Shown here piece after piece: positions 12,954-55,439 of a DNA stretch of 64,000 nt. Origin of the DNA: a virus. The DNA is taken from IMG/VR virus record IMGVR_UViG_3300017781_004450, positions 1 through 64,000 of that record. One strand, written 5' to 3'. The stretch's first letter is position 1. Each line of letters begins with the position of its first letter. Below the pieces are notes generated by a model, which worked only from the letters and a program-made list of their open reading frames with translations, was not told the DNA's origin and searched no databases. Both the position numbers and the translations under genes were made by a program.

Positions 12954-13063
12954 TCTTCTTGGAATCTATCGCGGAGTGAGTCTAAAAGCTCAATAAGCTC
13001 GTCTATGAGATTTTGATCTTGTTGTTGAGCTGTGTCAACTTCTACTTCTATTTTGATTTTCAT
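12950..13063 (-). CDS. Small acidic protein (not in ORF track)
   Basis: TAATG coupling to ferredoxin; [37 protein letters not shown], 37 aa. Confidence 0.55.
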   Translation of the reverse strand: MKIKIEVEVDTAQQQDQNLIDELIELLDSLRDRFQEE

Positions 13064-13413
13064 TAGTCTATTTGTACTGCGGGTATAGCTTTAAATAATT
13101 TTGTTTTATCTTCTTTGTAGTTCTCTTTTGCAAAGTCTATATAGTCTTCCATAGGTGGTTGTTCGTCTGCAATGTTTGGCCAGTTAGCGTCATTAGAAAA
13201 ATATTGATTATGCTTAAACCATTTGTTATCTTCGTCATCAGTTTGCCATATTGCATCTTCAGGACATTCAGGAACACACACTCCGCAATCAATACATTCA
13301 TCAGGATTAATTACTAGCATGTTTTCACCCTCATAAAAACAATCTACAGGGCAAACACTTACACAGGTTGTGTGTTTACAGTTAATACATTTGTCGTCAA
13401 CTACATGAGTCAT
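13063..13413 (-). CDS. fdxA: 7Fe ([3Fe-4S][4Fe-4S]) ferredoxin, FdxA type
   Basis: [21 protein letters not shown]...[15 protein letters not shown], closely matching the Azotobacter FdI pattern. Confidence 0.9.
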
Positions 13414-13414
13414 T

Positions 13415-13660
13415 TTATACTAGCCAATTATATATAGCCCTTAATGCTAATAATAGATACATACCTTCCATTAATGCCCTAGGTATATCTTTATCTTTAA
13501 TACCAAAGTAAATCCACATTGCACAACTAACTGTAGCAACTGCCCAGCCTATCCATTGTGTTTCTGGATTAGCGTCTGAAAGAATAAAAGCAGCAATAAT
13601 TGCAAGTAAGAAACCAACCCACCTAGGACCATCTATGTCGTGGTAGTATCTTATCTTCAT
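13415..13660 (-). CDS. Small three-TM membrane protein (PnuC/SemiSWEET-like size)
   Basis: Three hydrophobic segments; ends IYNW. Confidence 0.45.
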
Positions 13661-14571
13661 AGTCTTGCTAACTTAATTAATGTTGCAGCCAAGTTAATCT
13701 CTGGATCAGCAACAAGTGTATGATCTACTAGTCCTTGTTTAATAACAATTACTGCTGTGTCTTGTTTTTCTTCTTCACCGAATATTTCTAAATTATCATA
13801 AAGCCAACGATAGATCTCTTCCATTTCCTCAGCACGTACTTTACCACAAAGCAGTTTACGTGCTTGTGTAATCTTACCTTCTTTAAATAGTTCAACCATT
13901 TCAAACTTCCAGTCAGCTTCACCTTCGTCACCTCTAGTAGGCGAACTTAGTTTAGTACCACTGACGTTTTGTTGCACCATATTAATACATTTACGTAAGT
14001 CTGGGTATGCTACCTTAACATAATTATCAAGTGTATCTAATTCAAACTCTATGTTTTCTTCAACAAGAATAGTTGCAACCCTTGCAGTAAATTCTGTCTG
14101 ATCAATCTTCTCAATATGAAAGCCTTGACACCTGCTGTGAATAGCAGGAATAATTCTATTAGGGTAGTTACAAGTTAAAACAAATCTTGATGTGCTATGA
14201 TATTCTTCCATAACACCACGCAATGCCGCTTGTGCATTAGGCGACAAGTAATCAGCCTCATCTAATAGTACAACCTTAAATGGACCAAATGGAATAGTTT
14301 GTACAAAGCCTGTAATCTTATCTCGAATTTCATCAACAGAGTTATTTCTACTAGCATTAAGTTCTAGTACATCATATCCTTCAATGCCTAGTTCATTAAC
14401 AAGCATCTTTGCCATAGTAGTTTTACCGATACCGGCTGCGCCACTAAACAACAAATGCGGAATACTTTCATCTTTGACCCATGCTTGTACCTGTGCTTTC
14501 TGATGATTGTCTCTAAAAACATAATCTTCAAGTTTCTTAGGACGATACTTTTCTACCCATAACTCTTTCAT
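13657..14571 (-). CDS. Sliding-clamp loader ATPase subunit (RFC small subunit / T4 gp44-like)
   Basis: LWVEKYRP, GAAGIGKTT, ELNAS, LDEAD, SRC. Confidence 0.92.
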   Translation of the reverse strand: MKELWVEKYRPKKLEDYVFRDNHQKAQVQAWVKDESIPHLLFSGAAGIGKTTMAKMLVNELGIEGYDVLELNASRNNSVDEIRDKITGFVQTIPFGPFKVVLLDEADYLSPNAQAALRGVMEEYHSTSRFVLTCNYPNRIIPAIHSRCQGFHIEKIDQTEFTARVATILVEENIEFELDTLDNYVKVAYPDLRKCINMVQQNVSGTKLSSPTRGDEGEADWKFEMVELFKEGKITQARKLLCGKVRAEEMEEIYRWLYDNLEIFGEEEKQDTAVIVIKQGLVDHTLVADPEINLAATLIKLARL

Positions 14572-29861: not shown

Positions 29862-29942
29862 CTACTAAGTCTCCAAGTATCTTATTCCTAATGTATTTAG
29901 CCAATAATTTTACAAGCCTAATGTAAAATAGTAAATACATGC

Positions 29943-30230
29943 ATGTTCATTAAAACTGAAAAAGTACATACTCACTATAAACGGCAGAGTAAACTTGGCA
30001 AAAAACACGAATATCTTCGTGAAAAAACTGTTGTTCACCTACAGTGTGATAACTGTGATACTGTATTTACCAGGGATCTAAAAAAGATGAACTCAAGCCG
30101 GTTGAACAACAACTACTTCCATGTGTGTACTAACTGTGATGCTAAACGTTTTGCTCAACGCAAAGGTGTAGAACAGAAACAAGTATGGGATTTGCCTGCA
30201 AACACAGACTTACCTTTATCTAAATTCTAG
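29943..30230 (+). CDS. Zinc-ribbon hypothetical protein
   Basis: CDNC and CTNC motifs; TAAATA (29932-29937)-N5-ATG. Confidence 0.6.
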   Translation: MFIKTEKVHTHYKRQSKLGKKHEYLREKTVVHLQCDNCDTVFTRDLKKMNSSRLNNNYFHVCTNCDAKRFAQRKGVEQKQVWDLPANTDLPLSKF

Positions 30231-30408
30231 TAGATCTACTAGTAAGTTCTTTTTTTACTTTTACTATAGTTTTAGGCTTTGCATTACTGCTACCTATATA
30301 GTCTACTAGCTCTTGTGTAGAGGTACACTTCATGTAAAAGTGTTGAGTTTCAGTTTTACCTGTGGATTTATTTCTAATTTTTTGTGATGGTTTAAATTTT
30401 ACTGGCAT
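30220..30408 (-). CDS. Small basic hypothetical protein
   Basis: 62 aa, TAATG-coupled to iscU. Confidence 0.5.
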   Translation of the reverse strand: MPVKFKPSQKIRNKSTGKTETQHFYMKCTSTQELVDYIGSSNAKPKTIVKVKKELTSRSTRI

Positions 30409-30836
30409 TATTCTGGACCGTTATTGTGTTTTCTTTTTAATTTTTTATTATCCCAATTCTCTATTGCTTCTTTGATTGATTCTTCTGCTAGGATTGAACA
30501 ATGTAGTTTCAATGCAGGAAGTTCTAAAGCATCTGCTATATCTTTGTCTTTGATTTGTTGTGCTTGTTCAGTAGTTATACCTGTTAGCATTTCGACAAAC
30601 ATGTGCGAACTTGCAATAGCACTACCACAACCATATGTTTTGAATTTTACATCTTCAATAACATCGGTGTCAGGATTAATTTTTAGATCTAACTTCATTA
30701 CATCACCACATGCAGGTGCGCCAGTCATTCCAGTAGCAACGTTTGGATCTTTAGGATCAAACCTACCAACTCCATTTGCCTCAGGATCATGAAGTACATT
30801 TTTAAATCTGTCTACTACTTTATTACTGTATGCCAT
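30408..30836 (-). CDS. iscU: Fe-S cluster scaffold IscU
   Basis: GAPACGDVMKL, FKTYGCGSAIASS and LP..K.HCS (three Cys ligands). Confidence 0.95.
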   Translation of the reverse strand: MAYSNKVVDRFKNVLHDPEANGVGRFDPKDPNVATGMTGAPACGDVMKLDLKINPDTDVIEDVKFKTYGCGSAIASSHMFVEMLTGITTEQAQQIKDKDIADALELPALKLHCSILAEESIKEAIENWDNKKLKRKHNNGPE

Positions 30837-30853
30837 AATAATTATTTACCTCG

Positions 30854-32125
30854 TTAGTGAGCGTTCCATTTAACCTTACTAAAGTCAACACCGTCCAAAT
30901 ACATATCCCACAGAGGAGATAGTATTCTAAGTTTGCCAATTACATTAAGCATTGTCTCTGCAACACTATCTACTTCTTCTACAGTAGTTGTTCTGCCAAA
31001 ACTAAATCTAATGCTACTGTGTGCTAACTCGTCGTCTCTGCCTATAGCTCTAAGCACATAACTAGGCTCTAAACTAGCACTTGTACATGCACTACCACTG
31101 CTTACAGCAACGTTCTCTAATGCCATAATCAAAGACTCGCCTTCAACAAAATTAAAACTAATATTAAGTATGTTTGGTACTTTGTGATCTAGTGAACCAT
31201 TTATGTATGATTCTTCAATAGTAGTAAGTTTGCTTAACAGTCTATCATGTAGCATTTTAATATGCTGTTTGTTCTTTTCCATTTCAAGTCTTGCGTACTT
31301 GAATGCTTCGCCCATGCCTACTATTTGATGTGTAGGTAATGTGCCTGAACGCATACCTCTTTCGTGTCCGCCACCGTGTATTTGAGCTCTAAGTCTTACT
31401 CTTGGTTTCTTTCTGACATACAGAGCACCAATACCTTTTGGACCATATGTTTTGTGTGCGGATAAACTCATTAAATGTACAGGAAGTTCTTGTAAGTTAA
31501 ACTCTATTTTTCCTGTTGCCTGTGCAGCATCAACATGAAACATTATTTTGTTTTCAAAACAATACTTACCAATGCCTTCTATGTCATTGACAGTACCCAT
31601 TTCATTATTAATATACATAATGCTAACAAGTATAGTATCGTCTCTAACAGCGTCTATAACCATGTCTGCTGTAACTATGCCATCTTCGTTAGGGTCTAAG
31701 TATGTAACTTCAAATCCGTCACGTTCTAATTCTCTACATGGATCTAGTACTGCTTTATGTTCTATCTTGCTTGTTATAATGTGTTTGCCTTTGCTTTGAT
31801 AAAAATCTGCAATACCTTTAATTGCTAAATTATCTGCTTCGGTAGCGCCACTTGTAAATACTATTTCTTTAGGATCTGCACCAATTAATTCAGCTACATT
31901 TTTTCTAGCCTCATCAACAGCATCGTCTGCTTTCCATCCAAAACTATGACTTCTACTTGCTGGATTACCAAATTCACCTTCATCAGTCATGTACTTGACC
32001 ATGGTTTCGACTACACGTTTATCACATGGAGTTGTAGAAGCATAATCCATATAGATTCTGTTACCCGATGACTCTGCATGGGTATCGATGGTCGCTGTGA
32101 CATCTCTGTGTTGCTTATGATCCAT
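30854..32125 (-). CDS. iscS: Cysteine desulfurase IscS
   Basis: [29 protein letters not shown] (PLP Lys), [16 protein letters not shown]-terminus. Confidence 0.96.
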
Positions 32126-32148
32126 TAATGTATATGATTTTTTAGTTT

Positions 32149-32177
32149 ATTGTACAACAATTTAGTAATATTGTCAA
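32149..32177 (-). promoter_or_regulatory. Sigma70-type promoter for iscS-iscU
   Basis: TTGACA-N17-TACAAT; an additional TATAAATA late box lies at 32185-32192. Confidence 0.7.
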
Positions 32178-32262
32178 CCAACTGTATTTATACAACACAA
32201 AAAGACTATATGTAATGATTGGTTTTTATTTTTTATGCCGGGCCTAAGTGTATAAATACAGT

Positions 32263-32826
32263 ATGACCATAAAGTTATACAGAAAAATAGTCATTGAAGC
32301 AGATACAGCTCGTGAAAATCTAGTGCAAGAAAAGTTGCCCTATGAGAAGAATGAGCTTGAAGTAATGAGCAGCGACACACTTGATTATCACTACGGCAAA
32401 CTTGCATCAGCGTATGTTAAAAGATACAATGATAAGGATGGCGATGATGATTTTAATTATGGCGGTGCAAAATTACATAATTTGTTCTTCCCACAGTTAC
32501 AACCTGTTTCTGCAGGTAATAAACCTACAGGCATATCGCAGGAACTTATTGATAGCAACTTTGGTTCTTTTGAAAGTTTCAAAGAAGAATTTTCAAAAGT
32601 AGCTATGGGCATTCAAGGTTCCGGTTGGTTGTACTTAGATACAAAAGGACGAATCAAAACAATTAAAAATCACGGTTATAAACGTGGAATGAAAATTGCT
32701 TTGTTAGTTGACTGGTGGGAACATGCATGGGCACTAGATTATCAAGCAGATAAATCAAAGTACCTTGCTAATATTTGGAAGATTATAAATTGGTCAGTAA
32801 TCAATGACCGCATACAAGGAGAATAA
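32263..32826 (+). CDS. sod: Fe/Mn superoxide dismutase
   Basis: LPY...L, YHYGK, HNLFF, GSGW, DWWEHA; start moved to ATG 32263, 4 nt after TATAAATA (32251-32258). Confidence 0.88.
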   Translation: MTIKLYRKIVIEADTARENLVQEKLPYEKNELEVMSSDTLDYHYGKLASAYVKRYNDKDGDDDFNYGGAKLHNLFFPQLQPVSAGNKPTGISQELIDSNFGSFESFKEEFSKVAMGIQGSGWLYLDTKGRIKTIKNHGYKRGMKIALLVDWWEHAWALDYQADKSKYLANIWKIINWSVINDRIQGE

Positions 32827-32827
32827 T

Positions 32828-32998
32828 ATGAATCCTATTAATTGGGTAAAAGATAGACTAGAAGAAAGAACATCCTGGGACGGTGCAGTCCTTATTGGAG
32901 TTGGTGTAGTTGTTCTAATCGCAGGACCATTTGCGAAATTAGCAGCATATGCAGCAATCGGATATGGTATTTGGACACTATGGAAAAAACAGGACTAG
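32828..32998 (+). CDS. Small membrane protein (ERTSWDG motif)
   Basis: AGGAG RBS, two hydrophobic segments. Confidence 0.6.
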   Translation: MNPINWVKDRLEERTSWDGAVLIGVGVVVLIAGPFAKLAAYAAIGYGIWTLWKKQD

Positions 32999-33312
32999 TT
33001 AAATTAACTCAATCAGCGGTCGATCACATGACCAAGCTGATAGACGAACAAGGTAAACCCATCGTCAGACTTCAAGTCAAGGGCGGTGGGTGTGCCGGTT
33101 TTCAGTATGAATGGTCCATGACTGAAGCCTTAGAAGAAAAAGATGAAGTAGTTGACTTACCAAACGGTCAATTTGCTATTGATCAATTTAGTGTAATGTA
33201 TGTTGCAGGTACTGAAGTTGATTTTATTAAAGAAGTGTTTGGATCCCAACTTATAATTAGAAATCCTAATGCAACGTCAAGCTGCGGCTGTGGCGAGAGT
33301 TTTGCGGCTTAG
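32971..33312 (+). CDS. iscA: A-type Fe-S carrier (IscA/ErpA/HesB family)
   Basis: GGGCAGFQY and NPNA...CGCGESF. Confidence 0.92.
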   Translation: MDTMEKTGLVKLTQSAVDHMTKLIDEQGKPIVRLQVKGGGCAGFQYEWSMTEALEEKDEVVDLPNGQFAIDQFSVMYVAGTEVDFIKEVFGSQLIIRNPNATSSCGCGESFAA

Positions 33313-41707: not shown

Positions 41708-41732
41708 CTTTTTATTCCTTATGTAAAGTAAA

Positions 41733-41756
41733 GTAGGGCTACACTCGTAGCCCTAC
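41733..41756 (-). terminator. Rho-independent terminator after the histone-like gene
   Basis: GTAGGGCTAC-N4-GTAGCCCTAC perfect 10-bp stem, followed by TTTACTTT on the minus strand. Confidence 0.75.
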
Positions 41757-41767
41757 ACATGGGTGGG

Positions 41768-42070: not shown

Positions 42071-43132
42071 ATGACACAAAAAGTTTCTGAAGTAACAACA
42101 GTTCATCTGGAATTGACAGATAAATGCCAAGCACAATGTCCAATGTGTGCAAGGAATTTCCACGGAGGTCCTACCAGACCTTTCATTAAGAACGGAGATA
42201 TGAGCATTGATGATTTTAAAAAATGGTTTCCTAAACCATTTCTAGCTCAGTTACAAAACTTTTATAGTTGCGGTAATTACGGTGATCCTGCGTTTGCAAA
42301 AGATTGCTTAGAAATTTATTCATATGTTAGAGAGTGTAATCCTACTACTAGATTAGCAATACACACAAATGGTGGTATGAGAAATCCTGAATGGTGGGCA
42401 AAGTTAGCAAAGGTTATAGGAACAGTTTCGAATAGTACAGTTGTATTTGCAATCGATGGATTCAAAGGCAAACATGAATTATATAGACGTAACACAAATT
42501 TTGATAAAGTTATAGAAAATTTAAAAGCATATATAGATGCTGGCGGCGAAGCAAGGGTAGATAGTTTAGTGTTCAAGCACAATGAAGATGAAGCAGAAGA
42601 ACTAGAAAAGTTTTTGCTAGAGCTAGGAGTCAAAGAAGTTAACTTTGTAAGCACTACACGTTTTTATGAGATGGAAAAATTTAAAGTTGTTAATAACAAT
42701 CTAGAAACAGAATATTTTTTAGAGCCTGCAACAAGACAAAGATTTGCTAAACAGCCAAATGCAAAATTAATTGATTTGTTAGATACAAGTTATCTAAATC
42801 ATGTTATGGAACAAGCAAAAATTAATCCTAAGTGTACTAGCGAAAAAGGTATATATGTTGATCCATACGGACACATAATGCCTTGCTGTTATATAGGTAG
42901 CGATTACTTAGAACAACCAATAGAAGAGATATTACCTATACACAAACTGCGTAATCAGAGTGTGCAAAATACAAAAGATATAATAAACAATATAGGTTTA
43001 AACACTTGCCAGTCAGGCATATTAGACACAGATGGCATTTTATTCGGTGGAATTACTGACTACTGGGAAGGCAAAGACAAGTGCATGACCTGTGTAAAGG
43101 CATGTTCAACTGCCATTGTGGAGCCTAAATGA
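42071..43132 (+). CDS. Radical SAM protein with SPASM/twitch-like C-terminus
   Basis: CQAQCPMC; GNYGDP; HTNG; C-terminal C...PCC...CxxCxxxC. Confidence 0.9.
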   Translation: MTQKVSEVTTVHLELTDKCQAQCPMCARNFHGGPTRPFIKNGDMSIDDFKKWFPKPFLAQLQNFYSCGNYGDPAFAKDCLEIYSYVRECNPTTRLAIHTNGGMRNPEWWAKLAKVIGTVSNSTVVFAIDGFKGKHELYRRNTNFDKVIENLKAYIDAGGEARVDSLVFKHNEDEAEELEKFLLELGVKEVNFVSTTRFYEMEKFKVVNNNLETEYFLEPATRQRFAKQPNAKLIDLLDTSYLNHVMEQAKINPKCTSEKGIYVDPYGHIMPCCYIGSDYLEQPIEEILPIHKLRNQSVQNTKDIINNIGLNTCQSGILDTDGILFGGITDYWEGKDKCMTCVKACSTAIVEPK

Positions 43133-44115
43133 ACGATTTTACTCTAATACCATTCCACAATATTGTTAAGTTTGGACAAACAACAATGCTTCAACAGCCA
43201 TTGTTTAACGTTAGTTGGATACTTGGTCGCTTCTGTAATTATAGTTGTAGTTACTGTTGGCCGTATGCAAACTCAAACGTTCCAGACCATCAAGACTTTG
43301 AAGTATACACAAATGCAATTGATGAAATTAAACGCCAAGCAAGAGCAAATGGATTTACTGAATTTCATTTTAGTTTTAGTGGAGGTGAACCAACAGCATA
43401 TAAAAAGTTTGGTGACCTTGTTGAATATTATGCTAATGACGATGAAGCAAAATATCAAAGCATACACCTTACAACTAATCTAAGCCCAGGTGAGAAATGG
43501 TGGGGAAGATTTATAGACAACACCAGCCACCTAACACGTCGTAGCATCACTGCAAGTTATCACGCAGAATTTGCAAACGAAAAAGACTTTGGAGATAGAT
43601 GCGTACAGCTCATAGAAGGAGGAGTATTTGTTACAATTAATCAAGTTATGGTTCCTGAACACTTTGAAGAATATTATGAACGTTGTAGTAGATTCGCAGA
43701 CAAAGGAATTAACGTCACTCTTAAACCGCAGTCCGACCCTACCGCGTCTAGAATAGTTGACGGGTACACCGATCAGCAAATTGAACAATTGCAAACAGGC
43801 TTTCCACAAAATTGGAAAGGTGAGCAAATCATGCAAATGTATTTAGAAGATGCTAAAGGAAACAATTATGGTTTGGATCAGGCAGAAAGAATGAATGCAT
43901 TTAACTTCAATAAGTTTAAAGATTGGAATTGCAATGCAGGGTATCAAAGCTGCGTTATAAGAGGTGATGAAGTTAAGAGAGCATATAGTTGCAGCGATAT
44001 CCCTTTAGGAACGCTACAGGGCGGTTTTACGCTGTTTAAGACGCCATCTAAATGCATTACTAGCTCTTGTGTAAGTAGTGCAGACAGCAAAATACCTAAA
44101 TTTTTAAAAGTTTAA
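43129..44115 (+). CDS. Radical SAM protein
   Basis: CNYSCSYC; SGGEP; C-terminal C.AG...C...C..C.S.AD. Confidence 0.9.
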   Translation: MNDFTLIPFHNIVKFGQTTMLQQPLFNVSWILGRFCNYSCSYCWPYANSNVPDHQDFEVYTNAIDEIKRQARANGFTEFHFSFSGGEPTAYKKFGDLVEYYANDDEAKYQSIHLTTNLSPGEKWWGRFIDNTSHLTRRSITASYHAEFANEKDFGDRCVQLIEGGVFVTINQVMVPEHFEEYYERCSRFADKGINVTLKPQSDPTASRIVDGYTDQQIEQLQTGFPQNWKGEQIMQMYLEDAKGNNYGLDQAERMNAFNFNKFKDWNCNAGYQSCVIRGDEVKRAYSCSDIPLGTLQGGFTLFKTPSKCITSSCVSSADSKIPKFLKV

Positions 44116-44959
44116 TTTTTTTGGTTTTGGATTTTTCAATTGGTAATGTAATTTTGTTTTCCCATTTACACAAACGACACTGCTCTTGAGGTTCTAATTG
44201 TGTTTTGATCCAAGTTTCAAACTCTTCAGGACTACACCCTAGATCTTGTTTTGCTATATCAGCAAACGGATCTTCTATTTGAAACTTTCTTGATAACTGA
44301 GGAAGTATTGCCTGTTGATGACAGCGATAAAATCTACCATCTACTAGATACATACATTGTATAGCAGGACACTTAGAATGCTGATCATCTTTATCTCTAA
44401 GTTTATCCCAAGTTATTTTGTTACCTTTTTTAACTACAGCAGGGTTTTCGTAAAACTGCCATGCTTCTGTAATTTCACCTCTTTCAATTCCGTCAACAAC
44501 AAGTTTATAATGCCACTCACCATCTTCGTGTCTAGTATCTTTGAATCGCTCACAGGATACATCTGCCCACCTATTGTGTATCCACGACATTACGGTGTCA
44601 AGGTCTTGTTGTGAATGTGCTGATATTTCTATTTTCCAATCACGGTCTATCCATTCAGGATACAGTTCATCAAATTTATCTAGGTCTCTCCCGTTGGTTA
44701 CTACCCATTTTTTAGCATTAGGCCACATACTTTCTAAGTATGCCATCCAATCTCCTAGTGCAGGATTAGACGTAGGCTCACCACCTATAATAAAAACTTC
44801 TTCAAAGTCGACTGTGTCTGGTAGAGCTTTTAATTTTTCTTTAGTTGTATCTGGCTTAAAATGGGTACCCCAATTTAAATGATTAAACGTGCAACAGCTA
44901 TCACACGCCAAAGTACAGGTGTGGGTTATATATACACTTAATTCAGGAAGGAGTAACAT
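44096..44959 (-). CDS. Radical SAM protein
   Basis: CTLACDSC; GGEP; TNG; Cys-rich C-terminus. Confidence 0.88.
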   Translation of the reverse strand: MLLLPELSVYITHTCTLACDSCCTFNHLNWGTHFKPDTTKEKLKALPDTVDFEEVFIIGGEPTSNPALGDWMAYLESMWPNAKKWVVTNGRDLDKFDELYPEWIDRDWKIEISAHSQQDLDTVMSWIHNRWADVSCERFKDTRHEDGEWHYKLVVDGIERGEITEAWQFYENPAVVKKGNKITWDKLRDKDDQHSKCPAIQCMYLVDGRFYRCHQQAILPQLSRKFQIEDPFADIAKQDLGCSPEEFETWIKTQLEPQEQCRLCKWENKITLPIEKSKTKKIKLLKI

Positions 44960-44986: not shown

Positions 44987-45592
44987 GTGAAAGTAGAACT
45001 TGAAGATATAAAATTTTGGATGGATGCAATTCGCAACAGCGAAGATCGCGACCGCACACTTGAAAGTTTTTGGGGAGGCCAATTAAAATCTAAAGCGTGG
45101 TTGGTTGAAACACTGCAAAAACATCATCATGTTGGTAATGTTAGTTGTGTTATATTTGGCGGATGGAATGGCGTATTAGCAAATTTATTGTTCAACAGCA
45201 CAATAGGATTTAAACATATTACAAGTGTTGATATTGATCCTAAGTGTGCAGAAATAGCAAACACAATGAATAAGCGTTACGAGATGGAAGGAAAATTTAC
45301 AGCAGTTACAGCAGATATGTGTGAGTATGAATATACTGATCAACCTTACATGGTCATTAACACAAGTTGCGAACACCTCACACAACAACAGTACAACAAA
45401 TGGGCAAAACGTGTACCAACAAGTACTGAAGTGATTTTACAATCTAATAATTATTTTGAACTAGAAGAACATGTAAACTGTTCTAATAGTGTTAGCAGTT
45501 TTGAAAAAAAATCTAAATTAAAAACTATACTAGTTAAAGATGAATTAGAGTTACCTAAATATACACGTTATATGTTAATGGGAAGATTTTAA
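44987..45592 (+). CDS. Class I SAM-dependent methyltransferase-like protein
   Basis: IFGGWNG, VDIDP, ADM, INTSCEH. Confidence 0.7.
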   Translation: MKVELEDIKFWMDAIRNSEDRDRTLESFWGGQLKSKAWLVETLQKHHHVGNVSCVIFGGWNGVLANLLFNSTIGFKHITSVDIDPKCAEIANTMNKRYEMEGKFTAVTADMCEYEYTDQPYMVINTSCEHLTQQQYNKWAKRVPTSTEVILQSNNYFELEEHVNCSNSVSSFEKKSKLKTILVKDELELPKYTRYMLMGRF

Positions 45593-46974
45593 TGTCTGAA
45601 TTAGACAAATATACAGACGCCATAGCCAAGGCCGCTGGCACAAAAACATTTTGTGTTTTACCATGGATACACTTTGCAACAAGACCTAACGGAGATATGA
45701 GATTATGTTGTTCGTCAAATGCTAGTGGTGCAGGTGGTGATCACGAAGTAGGTTTAGTTAAAATGAATCATGGCAAGCCTGCAAACTTTGGTCACGAAAC
45801 TCCTATGGAAGCATGGAATAATGATTACATGAAAAATGTAAGAACCACAATGCTTGAAGGTAATATTCCTGCAAGTTGTAAAAAATGCTTTGAGGAAGAG
45901 AAGAAAGGAGTTGCAAGTAAACGTGTTTGGGAAAGTTATACTTGGATGGAAGATGGTGTTGATATACCTGAACTTGTAAGACAAACAAAAGAAGATGGCA
46001 CAGTTCCTGAAAATTTAAAATATTTAGACTTACGTTTAGGACATACATGTAATATTAAATGCGTCATGTGTTCACCACACGATAGTAGCAAGTGGGTCGC
46101 TGACCATAAAAAATTAATTCCTGTATTAGAAGATCCTGAAGTTAAAAGGCAAATGCAATGGGATAGAAAAGAGTTCAATAACAAATGGCATGAAAAAGAT
46201 ACGTTTTGGGAAGAAATGAATGCACAGATTCCTAACTTAAAACAAGTATACTTTGCAGGCGGCGAGCCGTTAATGATTAGAGAACACAAAAGATTTATTG
46301 AAGAAATTATCAGGCAAGGATATCAAGATAAAATACTGTTACGCTATAACAGTAACGGATTGCTAGTTGATGATGATTTGATTGAGCTTTGGTCAAAGTT
46401 TAAGAAAGTTAAATTTGCTGTAAGCATGGACGCTAGTCACGAACGTGACGAATACATACGTTTTCCTACAAACTTTGAAACTGTAGAAAAAACATTACAC
46501 ATGTTAGATAACACACCTGACAACATACAAACAAGTTTAGCAACAGCAATTCAAATATTCAACGTAAAACACTTACCAGACTTTATGAAATGGAAACTAG
46601 AAAGCGGCTTTAAAAAATTAAATGTTGGTGAAGTTCCAGGTGGAGTACAAATGGGCGGTGGGCTAGTTAACATGCACTTACTATACATTCCAACATTTCT
46701 AAGTATACAAATTTTACCTAAAGAAGATAAAGAAGAAGTTAAAGAACGTTTTATGGACTTCAAAGATTGGCTATGGAAAAACTATAGACAAGATGACGAA
46801 TATTGGAAACATAATCCATATGGGTGGAAACGTTGGGAAGCAGTTCTTAATCATATGAATGCACAGGACAACAGTCACTTATTACCAGGCTTCAAGGAAT
46901 ACACAAATAAACTTGATGCTATACGAGGTTTAGAAGCAGCAAAGGTATTTCCAGAGTTAGCACATCTACTATGA
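45592..46974 (+). CDS. Twitch-domain (N-terminal) radical SAM protein
   Basis: FC..PW...CC...C..C N-terminal domain; CNIKCVMC; AGGEP. Confidence 0.9.
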   Translation: MSELDKYTDAIAKAAGTKTFCVLPWIHFATRPNGDMRLCCSSNASGAGGDHEVGLVKMNHGKPANFGHETPMEAWNNDYMKNVRTTMLEGNIPASCKKCFEEEKKGVASKRVWESYTWMEDGVDIPELVRQTKEDGTVPENLKYLDLRLGHTCNIKCVMCSPHDSSKWVADHKKLIPVLEDPEVKRQMQWDRKEFNNKWHEKDTFWEEMNAQIPNLKQVYFAGGEPLMIREHKRFIEEIIRQGYQDKILLRYNSNGLLVDDDLIELWSKFKKVKFAVSMDASHERDEYIRFPTNFETVEKTLHMLDNTPDNIQTSLATAIQIFNVKHLPDFMKWKLESGFKKLNVGEVPGGVQMGGGLVNMHLLYIPTFLSIQILPKEDKEEVKERFMDFKDWLWKNYRQDDEYWKHNPYGWKRWEAVLNHMNAQDNSHLLPGFKEYTNKLDAIRGLEAAKVFPELAHLL

Positions 46975-47975
46975 GAGAATTAATTAAAATTGCTACTACA
47001 CAAGATCCTGAAACATTAGATATTAGGTTCTGGCCAACTGACATTTGTAACTTCTCTTGCGAATACTGTTTTCCAGGTAGTGTTACTAACAGACTTCGCT
47101 ATCCTAAAAATATAGATACAGTAATAAAAAACTTTAGAGCATTATTTGATTATTATACATTAGCACATAATAAAACACATTTTAAGATTAACGTTGTAGG
47201 TGGAGGCGAGCCTACATTATGGCCTCACTTTGCAAAGTTTTGTAAAGAAATAAAAGAAAATCATAGTGTTCATATACAATGTACCACTAACGGAAGTAGA
47301 ACTGTAAGATGGTTTGAAAAAAATACACAAGATGTAGATGAGTTTGTTTTAAGTTGCCATCAAAAAGATGTAGACATTGATAACTTTATTGCAGTTGCTG
47401 ATCATCTCTTTGGAAGAGGAACAGATGTAACCGCACTTATGTTAATGGATGCAACAGCGTGGGATAGATGTATCGAACTAATTGAGAAAATGAAAACCAG
47501 TAAGCAACGCTGGATTATACAAGCAAAAGAAGTAGTAGATGCTCCCGGCTACGATATAGGTAGTTACAATGATGAACAAATGAAATACTTGCAGCAGCCA
47601 ATAAAACGTGCTCCAGATTCGGATTGGATTATATCTAACCTACATAGATTTAGAATACATGAAAGTATAGCAATATATGATAACGATGCTATAGTACCTG
47701 CAACACCAAACAAATATATTATGGAACAGGCAAACTATTTTAAAGGCTGGAAATGCAACGTTGCTATAGAAAATTTAGTTATTACACATGACGGTAGAGT
47801 TACAGGTAGTTGTCAAGAACAAGTATTTGCTGATGCAAATATTAGTATGTTTGCAGAGGATTTTATTTTAAGATTTAATAAAGCACAAATGGATTTAAAA
47901 ACTATTATTTGTCCAAGGACTAGTTGTAGTTGTCAACCTGACACACACATTACGAAATGGAAAGTTCCTTTGTAA
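46971..47975 (+). CDS. Radical SAM protein with SPASM/twitch-like C-terminus
   Basis: CNFSCEYC; GGGEP; TNG; C...C...C.C..D. Confidence 0.9.
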   Translation: MRELIKIATTQDPETLDIRFWPTDICNFSCEYCFPGSVTNRLRYPKNIDTVIKNFRALFDYYTLAHNKTHFKINVVGGGEPTLWPHFAKFCKEIKENHSVHIQCTTNGSRTVRWFEKNTQDVDEFVLSCHQKDVDIDNFIAVADHLFGRGTDVTALMLMDATAWDRCIELIEKMKTSKQRWIIQAKEVVDAPGYDIGSYNDEQMKYLQQPIKRAPDSDWIISNLHRFRIHESIAIYDNDAIVPATPNKYIMEQANYFKGWKCNVAIENLVITHDGRVTGSCQEQVFADANISMFAEDFILRFNKAQMDLKTIICPRTSCSCQPDTHITKWKVPL

Positions 47976-48861
47976 GAGGGATGTCAGCGGCACAAGTACA
48001 CCACTTACGAGTACAAGTTATCCAATCTTCCGGTTGTTCAAAACTACCGTCATAAATGTTACCTATACTTCCGCCAACTCTACAAGTAGCACGGTGAACT
48101 TCACCGTCCCAATTAATCATTAGGCTTTCTATACCTGCACTACACTTCCAACCTTCAAATTGATTTAGATGTTTTTTAATAACATCGTTGGCATGCATTT
48201 CTTCTTTATCGTCAATAATAACATTAGGCTTTGCTGTTGATGTTTGATTAAGTATCCATTCTAAATCTTTACCTTCATATTTTAAATCATCAAACACATC
48301 ATGGTCACCTTCTGTCCATCGTATTCGTCTTACAACATAAGGAATGCTGTGTCCGTCAAACATTGTAGCACATTCTTTTACTCTATCCATAAGTTTATGA
48401 TGTGCCATTAAGTTGACTTGAAATGGCTTTTTTGTATATGCACCTTCATTTATCTGAGAAAACATTAATACAGTTTCTGCACATCTTCTCCAATGTTCAT
48501 CGTCTTCTACATGCAAACTAAACACAATATGATTTACATTAAGATCACTGTAGTACTGTGCTGTCCGTGTGCCGTTAGTAGTTACATTGATCCAATCAAC
48601 ACGCTGACTTGCATGATCAACAAGTTCCGTAAACTTTGGGTGTACGCAAGGTTCACCGCCTGTAAAACTTACACGCATTGATTTATCAATTTCAGATAGT
48701 GCATCAACTGCATCTAACAATACTTTAATATTTGTATGTGGGCTGGTGTTATCGTGTATTTCTGTTGGGCAGTAACTACAATCAAAGTTACAACGTTTGC
48801 CAAGGTTCCACTCAACATGAACACTATCTTGATGCGGCCATTTGCTTATTACTTTATGCAT
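47950..48861 (-). CDS. Radical SAM protein with SPASM/twitch-like C-terminus
   Basis: CNFDCSYC; TGGEP; C.AG...C...C..WCTC.AD. Confidence 0.9.
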   Translation of the reverse strand: MHKVISKWPHQDSVHVEWNLGKRCNFDCSYCPTEIHDNTSPHTNIKVLLDAVDALSEIDKSMRVSFTGGEPCVHPKFTELVDHASQRVDWINVTTNGTRTAQYYSDLNVNHIVFSLHVEDDEHWRRCAETVLMFSQINEGAYTKKPFQVNLMAHHKLMDRVKECATMFDGHSIPYVVRRIRWTEGDHDVFDDLKYEGKDLEWILNQTSTAKPNVIIDDKEEMHANDVIKKHLNQFEGWKCSAGIESLMINWDGEVHRATCRVGGSIGNIYDGSFEQPEDWITCTRKWCTCAADIPLTKELSIS

Positions 48862-49658
48862 TGTACACCTTTAACTTCATTATATTTTTTTAAATGTGTT
48901 ATGTCAATATCTTCAATTAGATCTGCTACAGGAATCATTCCTAAATTAAAATTTTTAAATTTAAATGATTGTAACTTTATCCATAAATTTATATAAATTT
49001 TTCTTAGTAAGTACATTGGATAAGGTATTGTAGGACCAAACTTAACCATAAAATCTGCACTATAAAATTCTTGAGGTCTTATTCCTTTGGCTACACCATC
49101 TTTGTCTTTAAAGATATCTAAAACTGTTTTTCCAACTTGACAATAATTTATGTATACAGTTCCGTGAGTCCATTGAAATGTAAAGTGTTTCATATCTTCT
49201 TGTGATAGGTTCATCACAGGTCTATCTTTAAAAGTAACTACTACTGTAGGATGATTCGTTGTTCGTAACTCTGCTTCTAATTTATGTATAAGAATATTAA
49301 AACGCTCTACGCATTTTTGTATTTTCTTTGGAGAATTATTAAACCATTCTGTTCCTATGGTTGCTTCGCCACGTAAGTCTTCAAAAAATTTATGCAGATA
49401 GTTTAAATCTTGTTGCATACTAGTACTATTAGTACTGATATATCGATCAATATAAACTCCACTGTGTTTTATTTCTTTAATACATTGATTAAGTTCATCA
49501 ATAAGATTATGCGTACCCCAGTTAGTAAATCTATCTATTTCGTATAATTTATAATTTTTTAAAAGTTCTTTGTGCCATTTTTTAGCAATACTAGTATTTC
49601 TAACTTTAAATGGTATACTAGTATCTTCTTTGCCGTTTGTTAATATAAGGTTAAACAT
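48849..49658 (-). CDS. Hypothetical protein associated with radical SAM genes
   Basis: 269 aa, overlaps both neighbours; LN.LH..FE, N..IH..E and Y.QVGK motifs. Confidence 0.6.
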   Translation of the reverse strand: MFNLILTNGKEDTSIPFKVRNTSIAKKWHKELLKNYKLYEIDRFTNWGTHNLIDELNQCIKEIKHSGVYIDRYISTNSTSMQQDLNYLHKFFEDLRGEATIGTEWFNNSPKKIQKCVERFNILIHKLEAELRTTNHPTVVVTFKDRPVMNLSQEDMKHFTFQWTHGTVYINYCQVGKTVLDIFKDKDGVAKGIRPQEFYSADFMVKFGPTIPYPMYLLRKIYINLWIKLQSFKFKNFNLGMIPVADLIEDIDITHLKKYNEVKGVQCIK

Positions 49659-50919
49659 AAGGAGCGAACTCAGGGTTGGCTGTGAGAAAGTCTTGCCCCC
49701 TAGTTTTATCTAAATTATGGTTGAATGCTATACAGTCTTGCCAATGTGTGTCGTGCATACATTTAGCCTGTAAAAAATTAATGTTGTCTTGTATTTGTTG
49801 TAGAGTAACTTTTTTAAGCAATTCATTTTCTTTTATAGCATCATAATTTAAAACTTTAGTTTTCATTGCTTCTAAGTCTTTTATTACTTTTTCTTTTAGT
49901 TCTGGCGGCACTACTTGTGCTGACAAAGACATAGGATAGTTTACTCTATGTGAGTAAAATATAATACCCATATCATTTAAGAAATAATCAATAACATCAC
50001 AAATCTGCATAATGTTATTTGCTTGGACTGTAAAAGCGCCTACTACTCTACTTACGTTAGGAAAGCTCTTAAATACTTTTACGTTTTCTTCTACTTCACT
50101 AAACTTACCATTGCCTCTAATATATTCATATGTATCATGCAAACCATCTATACTTATATTTACTGCAACACTTTTAAACTTAGGCCAGTAGTCATGAATA
50201 GTACGTCCACCTTTAATACCTAATGTTGTGCCGTTAGTAGCATACTTAATTTCTATATTTTCTCCATACTCTGCTAGTCTATCTAAAATTTTATAGTGGT
50301 ATGGATCCATCAATGGTTCACCGCCTGCAAATTCTACACGCCTAAAGAAAGGCAATAGTTTTTCAAAACTACTCCACCAGTTATCTGAGTTATCAAACGG
50401 ACCTATATACTTTCCAGGTGTATCAACTAGTTTTTCAACAGTAGGAATAAGATAGTTGTTTTCTTTTTTATAAAATTCAGTAACTTGATTCCAATCTTTC
50501 CATTGTGTGCTATCTAATGGATTGCACATACGACACTTTAAATTACAAAGATTGTTAAGTTTTATTTCCATAGTAGGAAGTTCAAACGGCATTGTATAAT
50601 CTTCGTTTAAAGCGTCTAAAGCATCAGGGTATAAGTTTACCCTTGCTTCAGGTATTACTCCTGCTATATGACGCTGTCGTAAGCTCTCTACACCCTGATC
50701 TTCAAGATCAAAGCACGGCTTACAAACATCTGGTCGCTCGTCATTCATTACCTGGCGTCTGACTTCTTTCATCTTGTCGCCATTCCACACTTCTTCTACT
50801 GTTTCATTTTGTATCCAACCAATTGGTTGACTACGACAGCATACCTTAATGGCTCCGTCTTCTCTTGTTGCCAAGCCTGTAAAAGGGTGCATACAAAATG
50901 TTTTACTTTTGCATGGCAT
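49651..50919 (-). CDS. Twitch-domain radical SAM protein
   Basis: FCMHPF...CC...C..C; CNLKCRMC; AGGEP; paralogue of 45592-46974. Confidence 0.9.
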   Translation of the reverse strand: MPCKSKTFCMHPFTGLATREDGAIKVCCRSQPIGWIQNETVEEVWNGDKMKEVRRQVMNDERPDVCKPCFDLEDQGVESLRQRHIAGVIPEARVNLYPDALDALNEDYTMPFELPTMEIKLNNLCNLKCRMCNPLDSTQWKDWNQVTEFYKKENNYLIPTVEKLVDTPGKYIGPFDNSDNWWSSFEKLLPFFRRVEFAGGEPLMDPYHYKILDRLAEYGENIEIKYATNGTTLGIKGGRTIHDYWPKFKSVAVNISIDGLHDTYEYIRGNGKFSEVEENVKVFKSFPNVSRVVGAFTVQANNIMQICDVIDYFLNDMGIIFYSHRVNYPMSLSAQVVPPELKEKVIKDLEAMKTKVLNYDAIKENELLKKVTLQQIQDNINFLQAKCMHDTHWQDCIAFNHNLDKTRGQDFLTANPEFAPYV

Positions 50920-52681: not shown

Positions 52682-52710
52682 AAGTATATTTATTATATGG
52701 AGTATTGGCA

Positions 52711-53622
52711 ATGAAAATTTTAATGACAGGATCATCTGGATTCATAGGTTCTCATTTATCCGAAAGACTAAAGAATCACGAAGTGCATCATTTGAAAAGC
52801 GATTTGCTAGATCATCAATCAGTTGCTGGCGAAGTATTATTAGTAAAACCTGATATTATTGTTCATCTTGCTGCACGTACAGAAGTCGAACAAAGTTTTT
52901 ACGAGCAGATTACATTTAGTGAAATTAATTATGTTGGCACAGTTAACTTAATTGAAACAGCAGCCAAGGTAAAAAATTTAAGAAACTTTGTGTTTGCAAG
53001 TACAATGGAAGTGTACGGGTGGCAACCTATTTCAGATGAAATTGAAGAACACGGTACACCAAAGCAATCTATAGCATTTGACGAAAACACTGTTCCTAAT
53101 CCTAATGCTCCGTATGCAGTTGCAAAGTATGGTTGTGAAAAGTATTTAGAATATGCACATCGTTGTTATGACTTTCCTTTTACAGCTCTAAGGCAAACAA
53201 ACTGCTATGGCAGAAAGGATAATGAGTTTTTTGTAACTGAACAAATTATTAATCAAATGTTAACTAATCCAGACAAGTGTAACTTAGGTTATGCTGAGCC
53301 GTATCGTAATTTTATTTTTGTTGACGATATGCTAGATGCCTGGGAAACAGTAATTAACAATCCTGATAAATGTAATGACGGAAGTATTTTTACAATTGGT
53401 CCGGATAATCCTATTAAGATTAGAGACTATGCAGAACTAATTGCTAAAAAGTTAGACTGGAAAGGAACTATCAACTGGGATACAAAACTATTTCGTGCAG
53501 GAGAGATTTACTGGCTTAACTCTAACAATACACTAATTAAGAAAAAACTAGGGTGGGAACCAAAAGTTACATTAGACGAAGGACTTGATAAAACTATCGA
53601 GATATGGAAGGCTATTGTATGA
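52711..53622 (+). CDS. NAD-dependent epimerase/dehydratase (extended SDR, nucleotide-sugar)
   Basis: GSSGFIG, HLAA, YAVAK, R.F..V.D, LGWEP; GGAG RBS. Confidence 0.9.
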   Translation: MKILMTGSSGFIGSHLSERLKNHEVHHLKSDLLDHQSVAGEVLLVKPDIIVHLAARTEVEQSFYEQITFSEINYVGTVNLIETAAKVKNLRNFVFASTMEVYGWQPISDEIEEHGTPKQSIAFDENTVPNPNAPYAVAKYGCEKYLEYAHRCYDFPFTALRQTNCYGRKDNEFFVTEQIINQMLTNPDKCNLGYAEPYRNFIFVDDMLDAWETVINNPDKCNDGSIFTIGPDNPIKIRDYAELIAKKLDWKGTINWDTKLFRAGEIYWLNSNNTLIKKKLGWEPKVTLDEGLDKTIEIWKAIV

Positions 53623-54302
53623 AATGGAACCATTACTTAAAACTTGATAGCATTGGCCGTCCTTGTATGGCACAACAAACTTATGAACCTCTTGTAAGTG
53701 AAGATGGAAAAACATTTTGTAAGAACTACGGATTTCCAAACGAATACGCATATAGAGATATACAGCATCGACCATTGTATACAAAAGAAGTTGTTGATTG
53801 GTTTTTTCAAAACGAATTAACTTATCTTGAATTATTCAAAGATAAAAAGTATGCACCAGAGGTAAAAGATATAGATTACAAAAATCAAAAAATTTACATC
53901 AAGTGGTATGGTAAAAGTTGTAACCAAGTAATTTATGATACTGAAGTTGAAGAGTGGCCAGAGTATATGTGGCGTAGACAAATTAGAGATATAATTGTTG
54001 ATCAATTTGACGAAGGTATATACAAATTAACAATGTATCCACATTGTCATTATATTACAGATTACAAACAAATGAAATGTATAGACTGGTACGGCTGTGT
54101 TCCTATTGATGATCCTTATATTGAAGAAAAGTACATGCAAGGTATTATACACGATACAGCACAATTTAGGTTAGATGAAACAGGTGAGCTTGTTGAAGAC
54201 AAAATAAACTTAGAAATTATGTTTAAGCGTAGTTTAAGCACACATGTTTTATGGGGAGATCAGAATATGAGTTACATATACGAGGAGTTATTCAATGCCT
54301 AA
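53619..54302 (+). CDS. Kinase-like-fold protein, paralogue of 58561-59253
   Basis: E..YL...APE...ID...IYI; G.YK..P; IDW; ATGA-coupled start. Confidence 0.45.
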   Translation: MKWNHYLKLDSIGRPCMAQQTYEPLVSEDGKTFCKNYGFPNEYAYRDIQHRPLYTKEVVDWFFQNELTYLELFKDKKYAPEVKDIDYKNQKIYIKWYGKSCNQVIYDTEVEEWPEYMWRRQIRDIIVDQFDEGIYKLTMYPHCHYITDYKQMKCIDWYGCVPIDDPYIEEKYMQGIIHDTAQFRLDETGELVEDKINLEIMFKRSLSTHVLWGDQNMSYIYEELFNA

Positions 54303-54867
54303 ATTTTTTGGTAGTACACAATCTATTATTGATTGGGATCCTATTGTAAAGAAATGTATGGAATGTACTACAGGTGATAAGAATACAGTTACAAGTGTAG
54401 TTGACCGTAGCGAAGCAGAATCAGATGGTCCACTACTTCAAAGTTATAGAGATATTATAGGAACATGGCAAGGTGCTGGTTATAATTTAGAAGAAATATA
54501 CTGGCATGACTACTATCCAGGTGAACATTTTGATATTGAAATACAAAATAAGTTTGCAAAACTAGTAAACGCACAGCCATTAAGAGTTTTTGTAAGCGAA
54601 GTTGATCCTGGGCGTAATGTTCCATATCATTGGGATGTCGAAGATAAAGAAGAAGAATGGTTATCATTAGGAGAGCTAAAACGTTGGGTATGCTTTATAG
54701 ATAAGCCAAGGTGGGGTAATGTTCTTATACTAGAAAACCAGTGCTTCCATAATGAAATACAAGGTAGCATATATGAATGGGATAATTATAGAAGCCATCA
54801 TGCAGGAACAAGTATGGGAATACACAAACAATACCTGTTTCATTTTTTAGGAAGGCCAAACAAATGA
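54295..54867 (+). CDS. 2OG-Fe(II)/AspH-like oxygenase
   Basis: PG...PYHWD...H.G motif. Confidence 0.65.
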   Translation: MPKFFGSTQSIIDWDPIVKKCMECTTGDKNTVTSVVDRSEAESDGPLLQSYRDIIGTWQGAGYNLEEIYWHDYYPGEHFDIEIQNKFAKLVNAQPLRVFVSEVDPGRNVPYHWDVEDKEEEWLSLGELKRWVCFIDKPRWGNVLILENQCFHNEIQGSIYEWDNYRSHHAGTSMGIHKQYLFHFLGRPNK

Positions 54868-55439
54868 AAATTAGAAATGCATTAGCAATGGGAATGACAA
54901 AGTTTTTTAGATTCTTTGCAGATACATTTTTTGCTAAAAGATATGGACACAGAGCAGTTGTACTAGAAACAGTAGCAGGTGTGCCTGGTATGGTTGCAGG
55001 CATGTGGTTGCATTTTAAAAGTTTGCGTAAAATGAAAACAGGTTTTGGTCCTGATATCAGAGAGATGTTAGAAGAAGCAGAAAATGAAAGAATGCATTTA
55101 ATGTTTTTCATTGCAATTGCTAAACCTAATGTGTTTGAAAGACTATTAGTTGTGTTAGCACAAATCATTTTTATGATATTCTATTTTATAATTTACATTA
55201 TCAGTTATAGACTTGCACACAGAATGATTGCATACTTTGAAGAAGAAGCAGTTAGGAGTTATACAGACTATCTAGCAATGGTAGAGAATGGAGAAGTAGA
55301 AAATGTTCCTGCTCCACAACTAGCAATTGATTATTACAAGATGAAAAAGACTGCTAGACTGTCAGACTTAATTAAATGTGTAAGAGCAGATGAAGAACAT
55401 CACAGTAAAGTAAATCATAGGTATGCAGATGCAGATTAA
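54864..55439 (+). CDS. aox: Alternative oxidase (di-iron ubiquinol oxidase)
   Basis: LETVAGVPGMV, EAENERMHL, FEEEAV.SY and RADE..H: all four AOX iron-binding motifs. Confidence 0.93.
   Translation: MKIRNALAMGMTKFFRFFADTFFAKRYGHRAVVLETVAGVPGMVAGMWLHFKSLRKMKTGFGPDIREMLEEAENERMHLMFFIAIAKPNVFERLLVVLAQIIFMIFYFIIYIISYRLAHRMIAYFEEEAVRSYTDYLAMVENGEVENVPAPQLAIDYYKMKKTARLSDLIKCVRADEEHHSKVNHRYADAD

Follow-up and report, generated by a model that had tools for sequence, protein, structure and literature searches.

The window analysed here comprises the first 64 kb of a linear 77,087-bp virus record in IMG/VR (IMGVR_UViG_3300017781_004450; CheckV completeness 21%), and its central feature is a locus at which the iron-sulfur (Fe-S) cluster assembly genes iscS and iscU diverge from a predicted superoxide dismutase (SOD) gene, sod, and an A-type Fe-S carrier gene, iscA. 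An earlier note had joined this locus to a 7Fe ferredoxin gene (fdxA), an alternative oxidase (AOX) gene and an island of radical S-adenosylmethionine (rSAM) genes, and had read the whole as a self-contained kit for Fe-S supply and oxygen protection, matched to the rSAM load. Scans with Pfam and NCBIfam profiles, with residues checked by alignment, found all of the genes named there intact and in place, and the divergent arrangement stands, with a spacer of 122 bp between iscS and sod. The open reading frames (ORFs) and the candidate promoter concerned are the following.

30220..30408, minus strand: basic ORF of 62 residues after iscU, no family match
30408..30836, minus strand: IscU scaffold, type 2; NifU_N 131.8 bits (cut-off 22)
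30854..32125, minus strand: IscS cysteine desulfurase, 423 residues; NF010611 688.4 bits (cut-off 548)
32149..32177, minus strand: sigma-70-like promoter facing iscS-iscU; TTGACA-17-TACAAT, 11 of 12 positions
32248..32826, plus strand: predicted compact Fe/Mn SOD with N-terminal extension; Sod_Fe_C 85.6 bits, Sod_Fe_N 27.0 bits
32804..32998, plus strand: hydrophobic membrane ORF of 64 residues, between sod and iscA
32971..33312, plus strand: A-type Fe-S carrier, IscA/ErpA-like; TIGR00049 103.8 bits (cut-off 58.8)
13063..13413, minus strand: FdxA-type 7Fe ferredoxin, 116 residues; 99 bits to Azotobacter vinelandii ferredoxin I
54864..55439, plus strand: AOX, di-iron quinol oxidase, 191 residues; PF01786 227.9 bits (cut-off 22.7)

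IscS also exceeded the cut-off of TIGR02006 (685.3 against 643.2 bits) and aligned with Escherichia coli IscS at 593 bits, keeping the pyridoxal phosphate-lysine motif and the catalytic-cysteine loop SSGSACTS; its gene ends 17 bases upstream of iscU, in the order of the host operon. IscU scored below the TIGR01999 equivalog cut-off (152.6 against 192.4) and retains the equivalents of E. coli IscU Cys37, Asp39, Cys63, His105 and Cys106 within APACGD, YGCGSAIAS and LHCS. The carrier matched Fe-S_biosyn at 62.6 bits and missed the ErpA equivalog (105.7 against 117), with its C...CGC cysteines kept in GGGCAGF and SCGCGESF. FdxA fell narrowly under the NF045490 cut-off (124.3 against 135); it aligned across 92 residues with A. 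vinelandii ferredoxin I, and both CxxCxxxxCxxxCP and CxxCxxCxxxCP, the motifs of the [3Fe-4S] and [4Fe-4S] clusters, are kept. AOX aligned with the trypanosomal enzyme at 134 bits and keeps the di-iron motifs LET, NERMH, EEEA and RADEEHH.

The SOD-like protein aligned with a solved Fe-SOD at 110.9 bits, with a shortened helical hairpin loop, and its metal ligands H48, H77, D155 and H159 align with those of that enzyme and are invariant across nine phage copies. The Sod_Fe_N match, which spans 34 residues, is at threshold only (27.0 against a cut-off of 27), and the equivalog NF007832 was not reached (84 against 348). Its first ATG is at 32263, where the earlier note had started the gene, but the ORF opens upstream with GTG at 32248. 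The sigma-70-like site, which would be a promoter of host type, is the best within 29800–33500 and is a consensus match only. The hydrophobic ORF of 64 residues is 100% identical in a close relative (G007), has copies of about 50% identity elsewhere in three more distant contigs (G002, G004 and G005), and is lacking between sod and iscA in another (G059). The basic ORF of 62 residues also follows type-2 iscU in G007 (86% identity) and G009 (45%).

Lineage and probable host of the source virus

Profile scans of the window found phage genes for T4-type baseplate gp9/10 domains, a clamp loader, PhoH, MazG, ThyX and a peptide deformylase, together with the chaperones DnaJ, a ClpB-like and a Cpn10-like protein. 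Among 50,697 GenBank phage records, the clamp loader is nearest to that of the Pseudomonas jumbo phage PA5oct (54.9%), followed by that of Agrobacterium phage Atu_ph07 (46.5%) and then by those of other phages of 300–490 kb. This affinity shows the contig to be a fragment of a marine jumbo myovirus with a genome of about 350 kb, and not of a T4-sized phage. Positions 30001–55000 gave no megablast match to GenBank phages, in a set from which records close to the window may have been excluded. The lineage is abundant, as the clamp loader has 8000 scored relatives at E ≤ 1e-30, the best 120 of which are 79–99% identical. The host is probably a SAR86-like aerobic gammaproteobacterium.

Conservation and relocation of a sod-iscU-iscA unit

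We compared 81 related contigs from two clades, coded G002, G004 and so on, with the window's own contig as G000. For clade 1, the close relatives, the clamp-loader alignment yielded 80 IMG/VR contigs at 75–98% identity; the searches covered the 50 longest (24.8–270 kb; 2,994 kb in total), and the other 30, all under 24.6 kb, were left out. A-type carriers were detected on 34 of the 50 contigs, IscU and SOD-like proteins on 17 each, FdxA-like proteins on 20 (nine over the cut-off) and rSAM proteins on 19 (17 over the cut-off), with up to 14 of the last on the 270-kb contig G028.

The carrier lies at most 1.4 kb from IscU in all 17 clade-1 IscU matches, and a SOD-like gene lies within about 1 kb in 13 of them. 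On the four SOD-bearing contigs without IscU, SOD adjoins the carrier. The order UvdE, sod, iscU, iscA, orf95, baseplate is found on a single strand in G019, G028, G046 and G047; in G033, sod-iscU-iscA is 89 kb away from UvdE; and G009 has two iscU copies and iscA in the pdf/DnaJ region, without sod. The three genes sod, iscU and iscA form a same-strand unit that occurs at three different genomic loci, and the retention of its composition while the locus changes argues for selection on the combination. IscU and A-type carriers are rare in the 50,697 GenBank phage records, with matches in eight and 11 of them, respectively (tblastn), so the combination of genes in the window can hardly be due to chance. 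IscS matches in 58 of these records were not used, since most are in short, unannotated or multi-contig records, at 27–64% identity, and are probably for the most part cellular carry-over. A literature search outside subscription journals and supplements returned no paper on a sod-iscU-iscA unit in marine jumbo phages, nor on iscS-iscU or sufBCDS in such phages.

In G009, we also observed that the two iscU genes are of different origin and stand in tandem with iscA (L121, C1:16000-30000, 6611-7982, minus strand), and that the type-1 copy has one in-frame TGA.

Fe-S and oxygen-related genes in a sister clade

The clamp loader of G002 led to 80 contigs of a sister clade (clade 2), of which 31, each of at least 55 kb (3,289 kb), were searched. 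Matches to rSAM proteins were found on 27 (26 over the cut-off), to IscU on three and to class-V aminotransferases on ten. The 340-kb contig G056 (91% complete), on which neither IscU nor a carrier was found, has 11 rSAM matches; sufB-sufC-sufD-sufS stand in a row between its phage core genes (L227, G056:C1:126000-135000; ORFs 7590-8927, 6598-7293, 5349-6605 and 4135-5355, minus strand), as they do in G058. The window's contig has no SUF genes, and none were found on the five largest contigs of clade 1. In G056 and G058 alike, aox directly follows sod and fdxA adjoins UvdE. In G057 (L225, C1:1-9000, 2434-4178, minus strand), genes for a plastocyanin/azurin-like cupredoxin, an ORF of 63 residues, fdxA and aox are consecutive, and this AOX is 82.5% identical to that of the window. 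A class-3 lipase-like gene was noted near the same row.

In G059 (L222, C1:83000-93000, 4624-7024, plus strand), iscU, a gene for a B12-binding rSAM protein of 566 residues and iscA overlap on one strand, the only direct operon of scaffold and client that we detected; the same contig has sod-iscA at another place. G002 has two such groups. The first (L009, C1:20001-40000, 304-4119, one strand) comprises genes for a bS21-like protein, a sugar nucleotidyltransferase, a cytochrome c and a ferritin-like protein, followed by iscS and iscU; the second (L009, 8103-10193) brings together Hsp20, ClpS, a SufS-like desulfurase and a peroxiredoxin, and the desulfurase-peroxiredoxin pair recurs in G065. 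Across both clades, genes for Fe-S assembly, iron storage, removal of reactive oxygen species (ROS), terminal oxidation and low-potential carriers form a connected network of neighbourhoods, with SOD as its hub.

Origin of iscS-iscU

The clade-1 contig G007 is syntenic with the window at about 90% protein identity, with UvdE, iscA, the small ORF, sod and then a divergent iscU, and has no iscS. Its sod-iscU spacer is 105 bp, and its IscU is 78% but its SOD 97% identical to the window's. Between the window and G002, identity is 91% for IscS and 90% for IscU, against 36–62% for the other proteins that they share (clamp loader 61%). The phage IscS sequences form a single clade in the trees (100/100), whose sister group (95/89) holds SAR86 and allied marine gammaproteobacteria, and the window copy is nested within the diversity of G002, G004 and G005. 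The clade of window-type (type 2) IscU (99/97) is sister to the same SAR86-like cellular group, and IscU of G028, G033 and G046 branches elsewhere among proteobacteria. In the cellular relatives, iscS-iscU-iscA are contiguous. The G002-like identities, the nested trees and the iscS-free G007 together suggest a history of two steps, in which iscS-iscU were captured from the isc operon of a SAR86-like host and then passed, most likely from a sister phage clade, into this sub-lineage.

The radical SAM genes

PF04055 exceeded its cut-off in eight of the 84 window ORFs and at 11 places on the whole contig.

42071..43132, plus strand: rSAM 1; PF04055 45.5 bits; CX3CX2C from residue 19; 13 cysteines
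43129..44115, plus strand: rSAM 2; PF04055 48.6 bits; CX3CX2C from residue 36; 10 cysteines
44096..44959, minus strand: rSAM 3; PF04055 30.1 bits; CX3CX2C from residue 15; 11 cysteines
45592..46974, plus strand: rSAM 4, N-terminal twitch type; NF033640 394 (cut-off 170); SPASM 23.3 bits
46971..47975, plus strand: rSAM 5; PF04055 45.3 bits; 12 cysteines
47950..48861, minus strand: rSAM 6; PF04055 54.1 bits; 11 cysteines
49651..50919, minus strand: rSAM 7, N-terminal twitch type; NF033640 327 (cut-off 170); SPASM 33.5 bits
62963..63967, minus strand: rSAM 8; PF04055 39.1 bits
Contig 64606-65490, 65503-66384 and 69572-70489: three further rSAM genes past the window; PF04055

All 11 proteins have CX3CX2C and 5–10 further cysteines. 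The earlier note had counted at least eight multi-cluster enzymes; the number of rSAM genes bears this out, but their multi-cluster nature does so in part, as models for auxiliary clusters match three of the 11 (Pfam SPASM in three, NF033640 over its cut-off in two), and for the remaining eight, which have 7–10 extra cysteines and no SPASM or twitch domain match, it would follow from cysteine counts.

In the island (42071-63967 and contig stretch L001, 1-13000), O2-sensitive rSAM genes are interleaved with genes for O2-dependent Asp/Asn beta-hydroxylases, 2-oxoglutarate (2OG)-Fe(II) oxygenases and AOX, and one 2OG-Fe(II) oxygenase carries a fused cold-shock domain. Also present are genes for a methyltransferase, an epimerase/dehydratase and an aminotransferase-like protein, and an Mtd_N tail-fibre-like gene lies close to the end of the island. 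At 41708–41762, in the 55-bp spacer between thyX and the divergent ORF leading into the island, we noted a GC-rich inverted repeat, GTAGGGCTACACTCGTAGCCCTAC.

Relation of the Fe-S genes to radical SAM load

At the level of clades, Fe-S assembly genes and rSAM genes occur together. The density of rSAM matches is about 3–4 per 100 kb in both clades, and all seven contigs of at least 199 kb (G028, G046 and G056–G060; 53–91% complete) have two or more rSAM matches together with one or more Fe-S assembly genes. The sites of the Fe-S module and the rSAM island were tracked with UvdE and ThyX as markers, and the two stand together on seven contigs (G000, G007, G008, G028, G030, G046 and G051).

A matching of the one to the other is not supported. 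Over all 50 clade-1 contigs, rSAM density was 4.6 per 100 kb where IscU is present and 2.9 where it is absent. Among the 19 clade-1 contigs of at least 60 kb, the median rSAM density was 4.2 with IscU and 3.7 without (Mann-Whitney p = 0.43), the two-by-two table of rSAM and IscU read 9/5 against 4/1 (Fisher p = 1), and the density was likewise unrelated to SOD (p = 0.33) and FdxA (p = 0.52), none of IscU, SOD, carrier and FdxA being associated with it (Mann-Whitney p = 0.33–0.52); clade 2 gave p = 0.45. On the 86 kb of G047, which carries the module, no rSAM match was found, not even in the 25 kb beyond ThyX, where relatives have the island. G011 (11 rSAM genes in 67 kb) and G045 (five in 56 kb) are without the module, and G002, G004 and G005 have iscS-iscU yet no rSAM match in 159 kb. 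Complete genomes of other lineages do not fit a coupling either: C48C1 has IscU and one rSAM match, the huge phages LR756504 and LR756511 (595–636 kb) each have a carrier and no rSAM match, and Atu_ph07 has four rSAM matches and neither IscU nor carrier.

The composition of the kit raises similar objections. IscS, searched as class-V aminotransferase, and AOX were each found on none of the 50 clade-1 contigs, the same searches being positive on the window's contig, and neither can be taken as a fixed part. FdxA adjoins the clamp loader, in the replication module, on all 20 clade-1 contigs that have it, and not isc or rSAM genes. The motif LPPVK, by which HscA recognises IscU, is altered to LPALK, and no HscA, HscB, [2Fe-2S] ferredoxin, frataxin or IscR was detected among the 99 ORFs scanned on a contig that covers about 21% of the genome, so the description of the kit as self-contained does not hold for this contig. 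In four RNA-library runs from four studies, exact contigs of 733–802 bases extend from sod across the ORF of 64 residues into the start of iscA. Further exact pieces match iscS and, in two of these runs (X2, X4), parts of rSAM genes. These pieces are contigs for which DNA carry-over is possible, and they show presence only and no expression levels. Gaps in the cover of the rSAM island in three of the four runs were not taken as silence, since the runs had been found through the 30–40 kb stretch and consist of contigs only.

Two further contigs break the pattern of module and island together: G037 has the module, no rSAM gene in 23 kb beyond ThyX and four farther off, and the 146-kb G022, with a single rSAM match, lacks IscU and SOD. 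The complete PA5oct genome has no IscU, no carrier and no rSAM match. G035, without the module, runs collinear with G033, offset throughout by 60,732 bases, and the module of G033 lies 58 kb upstream; absence from a fragment is therefore weak evidence of absence from the genome, and contig-level co-occurrence is uninformative for this reason. Co-occurrence at the level of clades amounts to few independent events, since the contigs are almost all fragments and come from two related clades. The earlier note is borne out in part: co-occurrence with rSAM genes across phages is seen at the level of clades and in one direct operon, but does not scale with rSAM count; and integration, as opposed to unrelated auxiliary genes, is backed by the sod-iscU-iscA linkage, the clade-2 linkages and the rSAM richness of both clades, but not by rSAM scaling, self-containment or the fixity of iscS and AOX. 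The kit is not a fixed system scaled to the number of rSAM genes.

Interpretation and alternatives

On balance, we favour the reading that a marine jumbo myovirus lineage of about 350 kb carries a modular, horizontally shuffled gene set for Fe-S supply and for control of oxygen and ROS, within a flexible accessory repertoire. IscS would pass persulfide sulfur to the IscU scaffold, and the A-type carrier would hand [4Fe-4S] clusters to apo-proteins; SOD would curb superoxide damage to nascent and installed clusters, and AOX would drain the quinol pool and consume O2. Host HscBA, [2Fe-2S] ferredoxin and iron donors would still be required. Infection plausibly adds to the cell's Fe-S demand chiefly through the phage rSAM enzymes (about 10–14 per genome, most with probable auxiliary clusters) and FdxA.

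The same genes might instead be general auxiliary metabolic genes (AMGs) for host physiology, which sustain host Fe-S enzymes of respiration, central metabolism and nucleotide synthesis and the redox balance during a long infection in iron-poor, oxic surface water, with no special relation to rSAM enzymes. We see this as a realistic possibility, though a doubtful one. The absence of association with rSAM density agrees with it, as do the phages of other lineages that combine IscU or a carrier with zero or one rSAM match, the rSAM-free stretches of G002, G004 and G005, and a repertoire that extends to ferritin, peroxiredoxin, cytochrome c, cupredoxin and chaperones; photic-zone viromes in general, according to the parts of PMC5332604 considered here, yield Fe-S assembly AMGs. 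However, 3–4 rSAM matches per 100 kb in both clades amount to a large phage-borne Fe-S demand, G059 has iscU, an rSAM gene and iscA in one operon, and a supply to host enzymes is compatible with, not exclusive of, the modular Fe-S supply that we favour.

Two narrower explanations concern single genes. SOD could be a virion-packaged internal protein with an N-terminal targeting tag, cleaved by a head protease and delivered at entry, in which case its adjacency to isc genes would be incidental. An extension of about 10–12 residues ending in (L/I/V)xE, present in nine phage SODs (in the window, 32263–32300) and absent from cellular SODs, would suit such a role, which we nonetheless regard as unlikely: a loose form of the tag occurs in only two of 98 contig ORFs, the contig has no head protease or head module, sod moves between loci together with iscU-iscA, and packaging would be compatible with an intracellular role. 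For IscS, a function in other sulfur trafficking, such as tRNA or DNA thiolation or thio-cofactors, seems very improbable. IscS is a general sulfur hub in cells, and the phage protein reached 444 bits with the DndA model, under its cut-off of 480, but it passes both IscS equivalog cut-offs, its gene stands directly before iscU at the 17-base distance and in the order of the host operon, a ferritin-like gene precedes iscS in G002, and no dnd, tus or thiI gene was present among the 99 contig ORFs scanned.

Beyond the modular gene set of one lineage, we tentatively put forward a wider proposal, which we think could well prove wrong. Two abundant marine jumbo-phage clades may keep a virus-encoded, horizontally shuffled pathway for Fe-S maturation and oxygen shielding (ISC or SUF, ferritin, SOD or peroxiredoxin, AOX and low-potential carriers), enabling about 10–14 O2-sensitive rSAM enzymes in aerobic, iron-starved SAR86-like cells, with sod-iscU-iscA as a selected operon and SOD possibly also packaged in the virion. 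If so, abundant ocean phages would assemble interchangeable ISC or SUF pathways together with ROS and oxygen control, and not single borrowed Fe-S genes, and their purpose would be to run O2-labile radical chemistry inside aerobic cells. Such phages would offer a natural toolkit for aerobic rSAM expression, a handle on the products of large phage rSAM islands and a tangible example of how viruses redirect the use of iron and sulfur where surface waters are iron-limited. Being small, the sod-iscU-iscA operon is a unit open to direct tests.

Comparison with known systems

The closest precedent is the work of Nishimura et al. 2017 (PMC5332604), who describe 16 marine viral genomes with genes for an A-type carrier and/or IscU, phage IscU of gammaproteobacterial, SAR86-like origin, and a T4-like genome of 183 kb with a carrier and 12 rSAM genes. 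They also propose that Fe-S proteins of the virus, and not those of the host alone, are served by the assembly proteins, and the core interpretation is therefore already published for T4-like marine phages (PMC5332604). Those genomes and ours are alike in combining an Fe-S scaffold or carrier with many phage rSAM genes and in the SAR86-like IscU. They differ in that the largest T4-like genome named there is of 183 kb, whereas the present clade is a jumbo clade near PA5oct with a conserved sod-iscU-iscA unit and an added iscS. The text of PMC5332604 does not mention 'iscS', and its Fe-S section names no SOD, AOX, 7Fe ferredoxin or SUF operon; relative to it, the jumbo setting, iscS, SOD, AOX and FdxA are additions.

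With the bacterial iron-sulfur cluster (ISC) operon (iscR-iscS-iscU-iscA-hscB-hscA-fdx-iscX), the phage locus shares IscS, IscU and a carrier with all catalytic and ligand residues, and the order and spacing of iscS-iscU are those of SAR86-like operons. Unlike that operon, the phage contig lacks IscR, HscB, HscA, the [2Fe-2S] ferredoxin and IscX, its carrier is ErpA-like and stands on the opposite strand behind the SOD gene, and its IscU has LPALK in place of LPPVK. Two candidates for Isc partners were rejected: the ORF of 62 residues is not IscX, as it is strongly basic, not acidic like IscX, and has no family match; and the phage DnaJ (6926–7735) is not HscB, as its domains are DnaJ and DnaJ_C, with that of HscB lacking. 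The bacterial SUF operon (sufBCDS) matters here only for related phages, as an alternative Fe-S machinery, G056 and G058 having its cellular gene order.

The plastoquinol terminal oxidase (PTOX) of cyanophages is a phage-borne di-iron quinol oxidase AMG, thought to relieve over-reduction of the quinone pool. In contrast to PTOX, the AOX described here aligns with the mitochondrial and proteobacterial type, the host is probably a heterotroph, and the AOX genes of relatives are linked to sod or fdxA.

Other sequence features

The motif TAAATAC is not enriched in the window (23 matches against 20.2 expected). It was rejected as a common promoter motif, since there is no overall enrichment and the copies upstream of genes split into two distance classes.

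3009, 8594, 9806, 12065 and 29893: TAAATAC, 25–32 nt upstream of starts
29932, 39641, 42057, 44964 and 44976: TAAATAC, 5–8 nt upstream of starts

About half of the copies are sense-oriented and directly upstream of genes, where they may be a phage promoter or leader element. Two further ORFs on the minus strand encode an acyl carrier protein-like protein (PP-binding; 9548–9778) and an RNA polymerase omega/Rpb6-like protein (contig stretch L001, 13573–13923).

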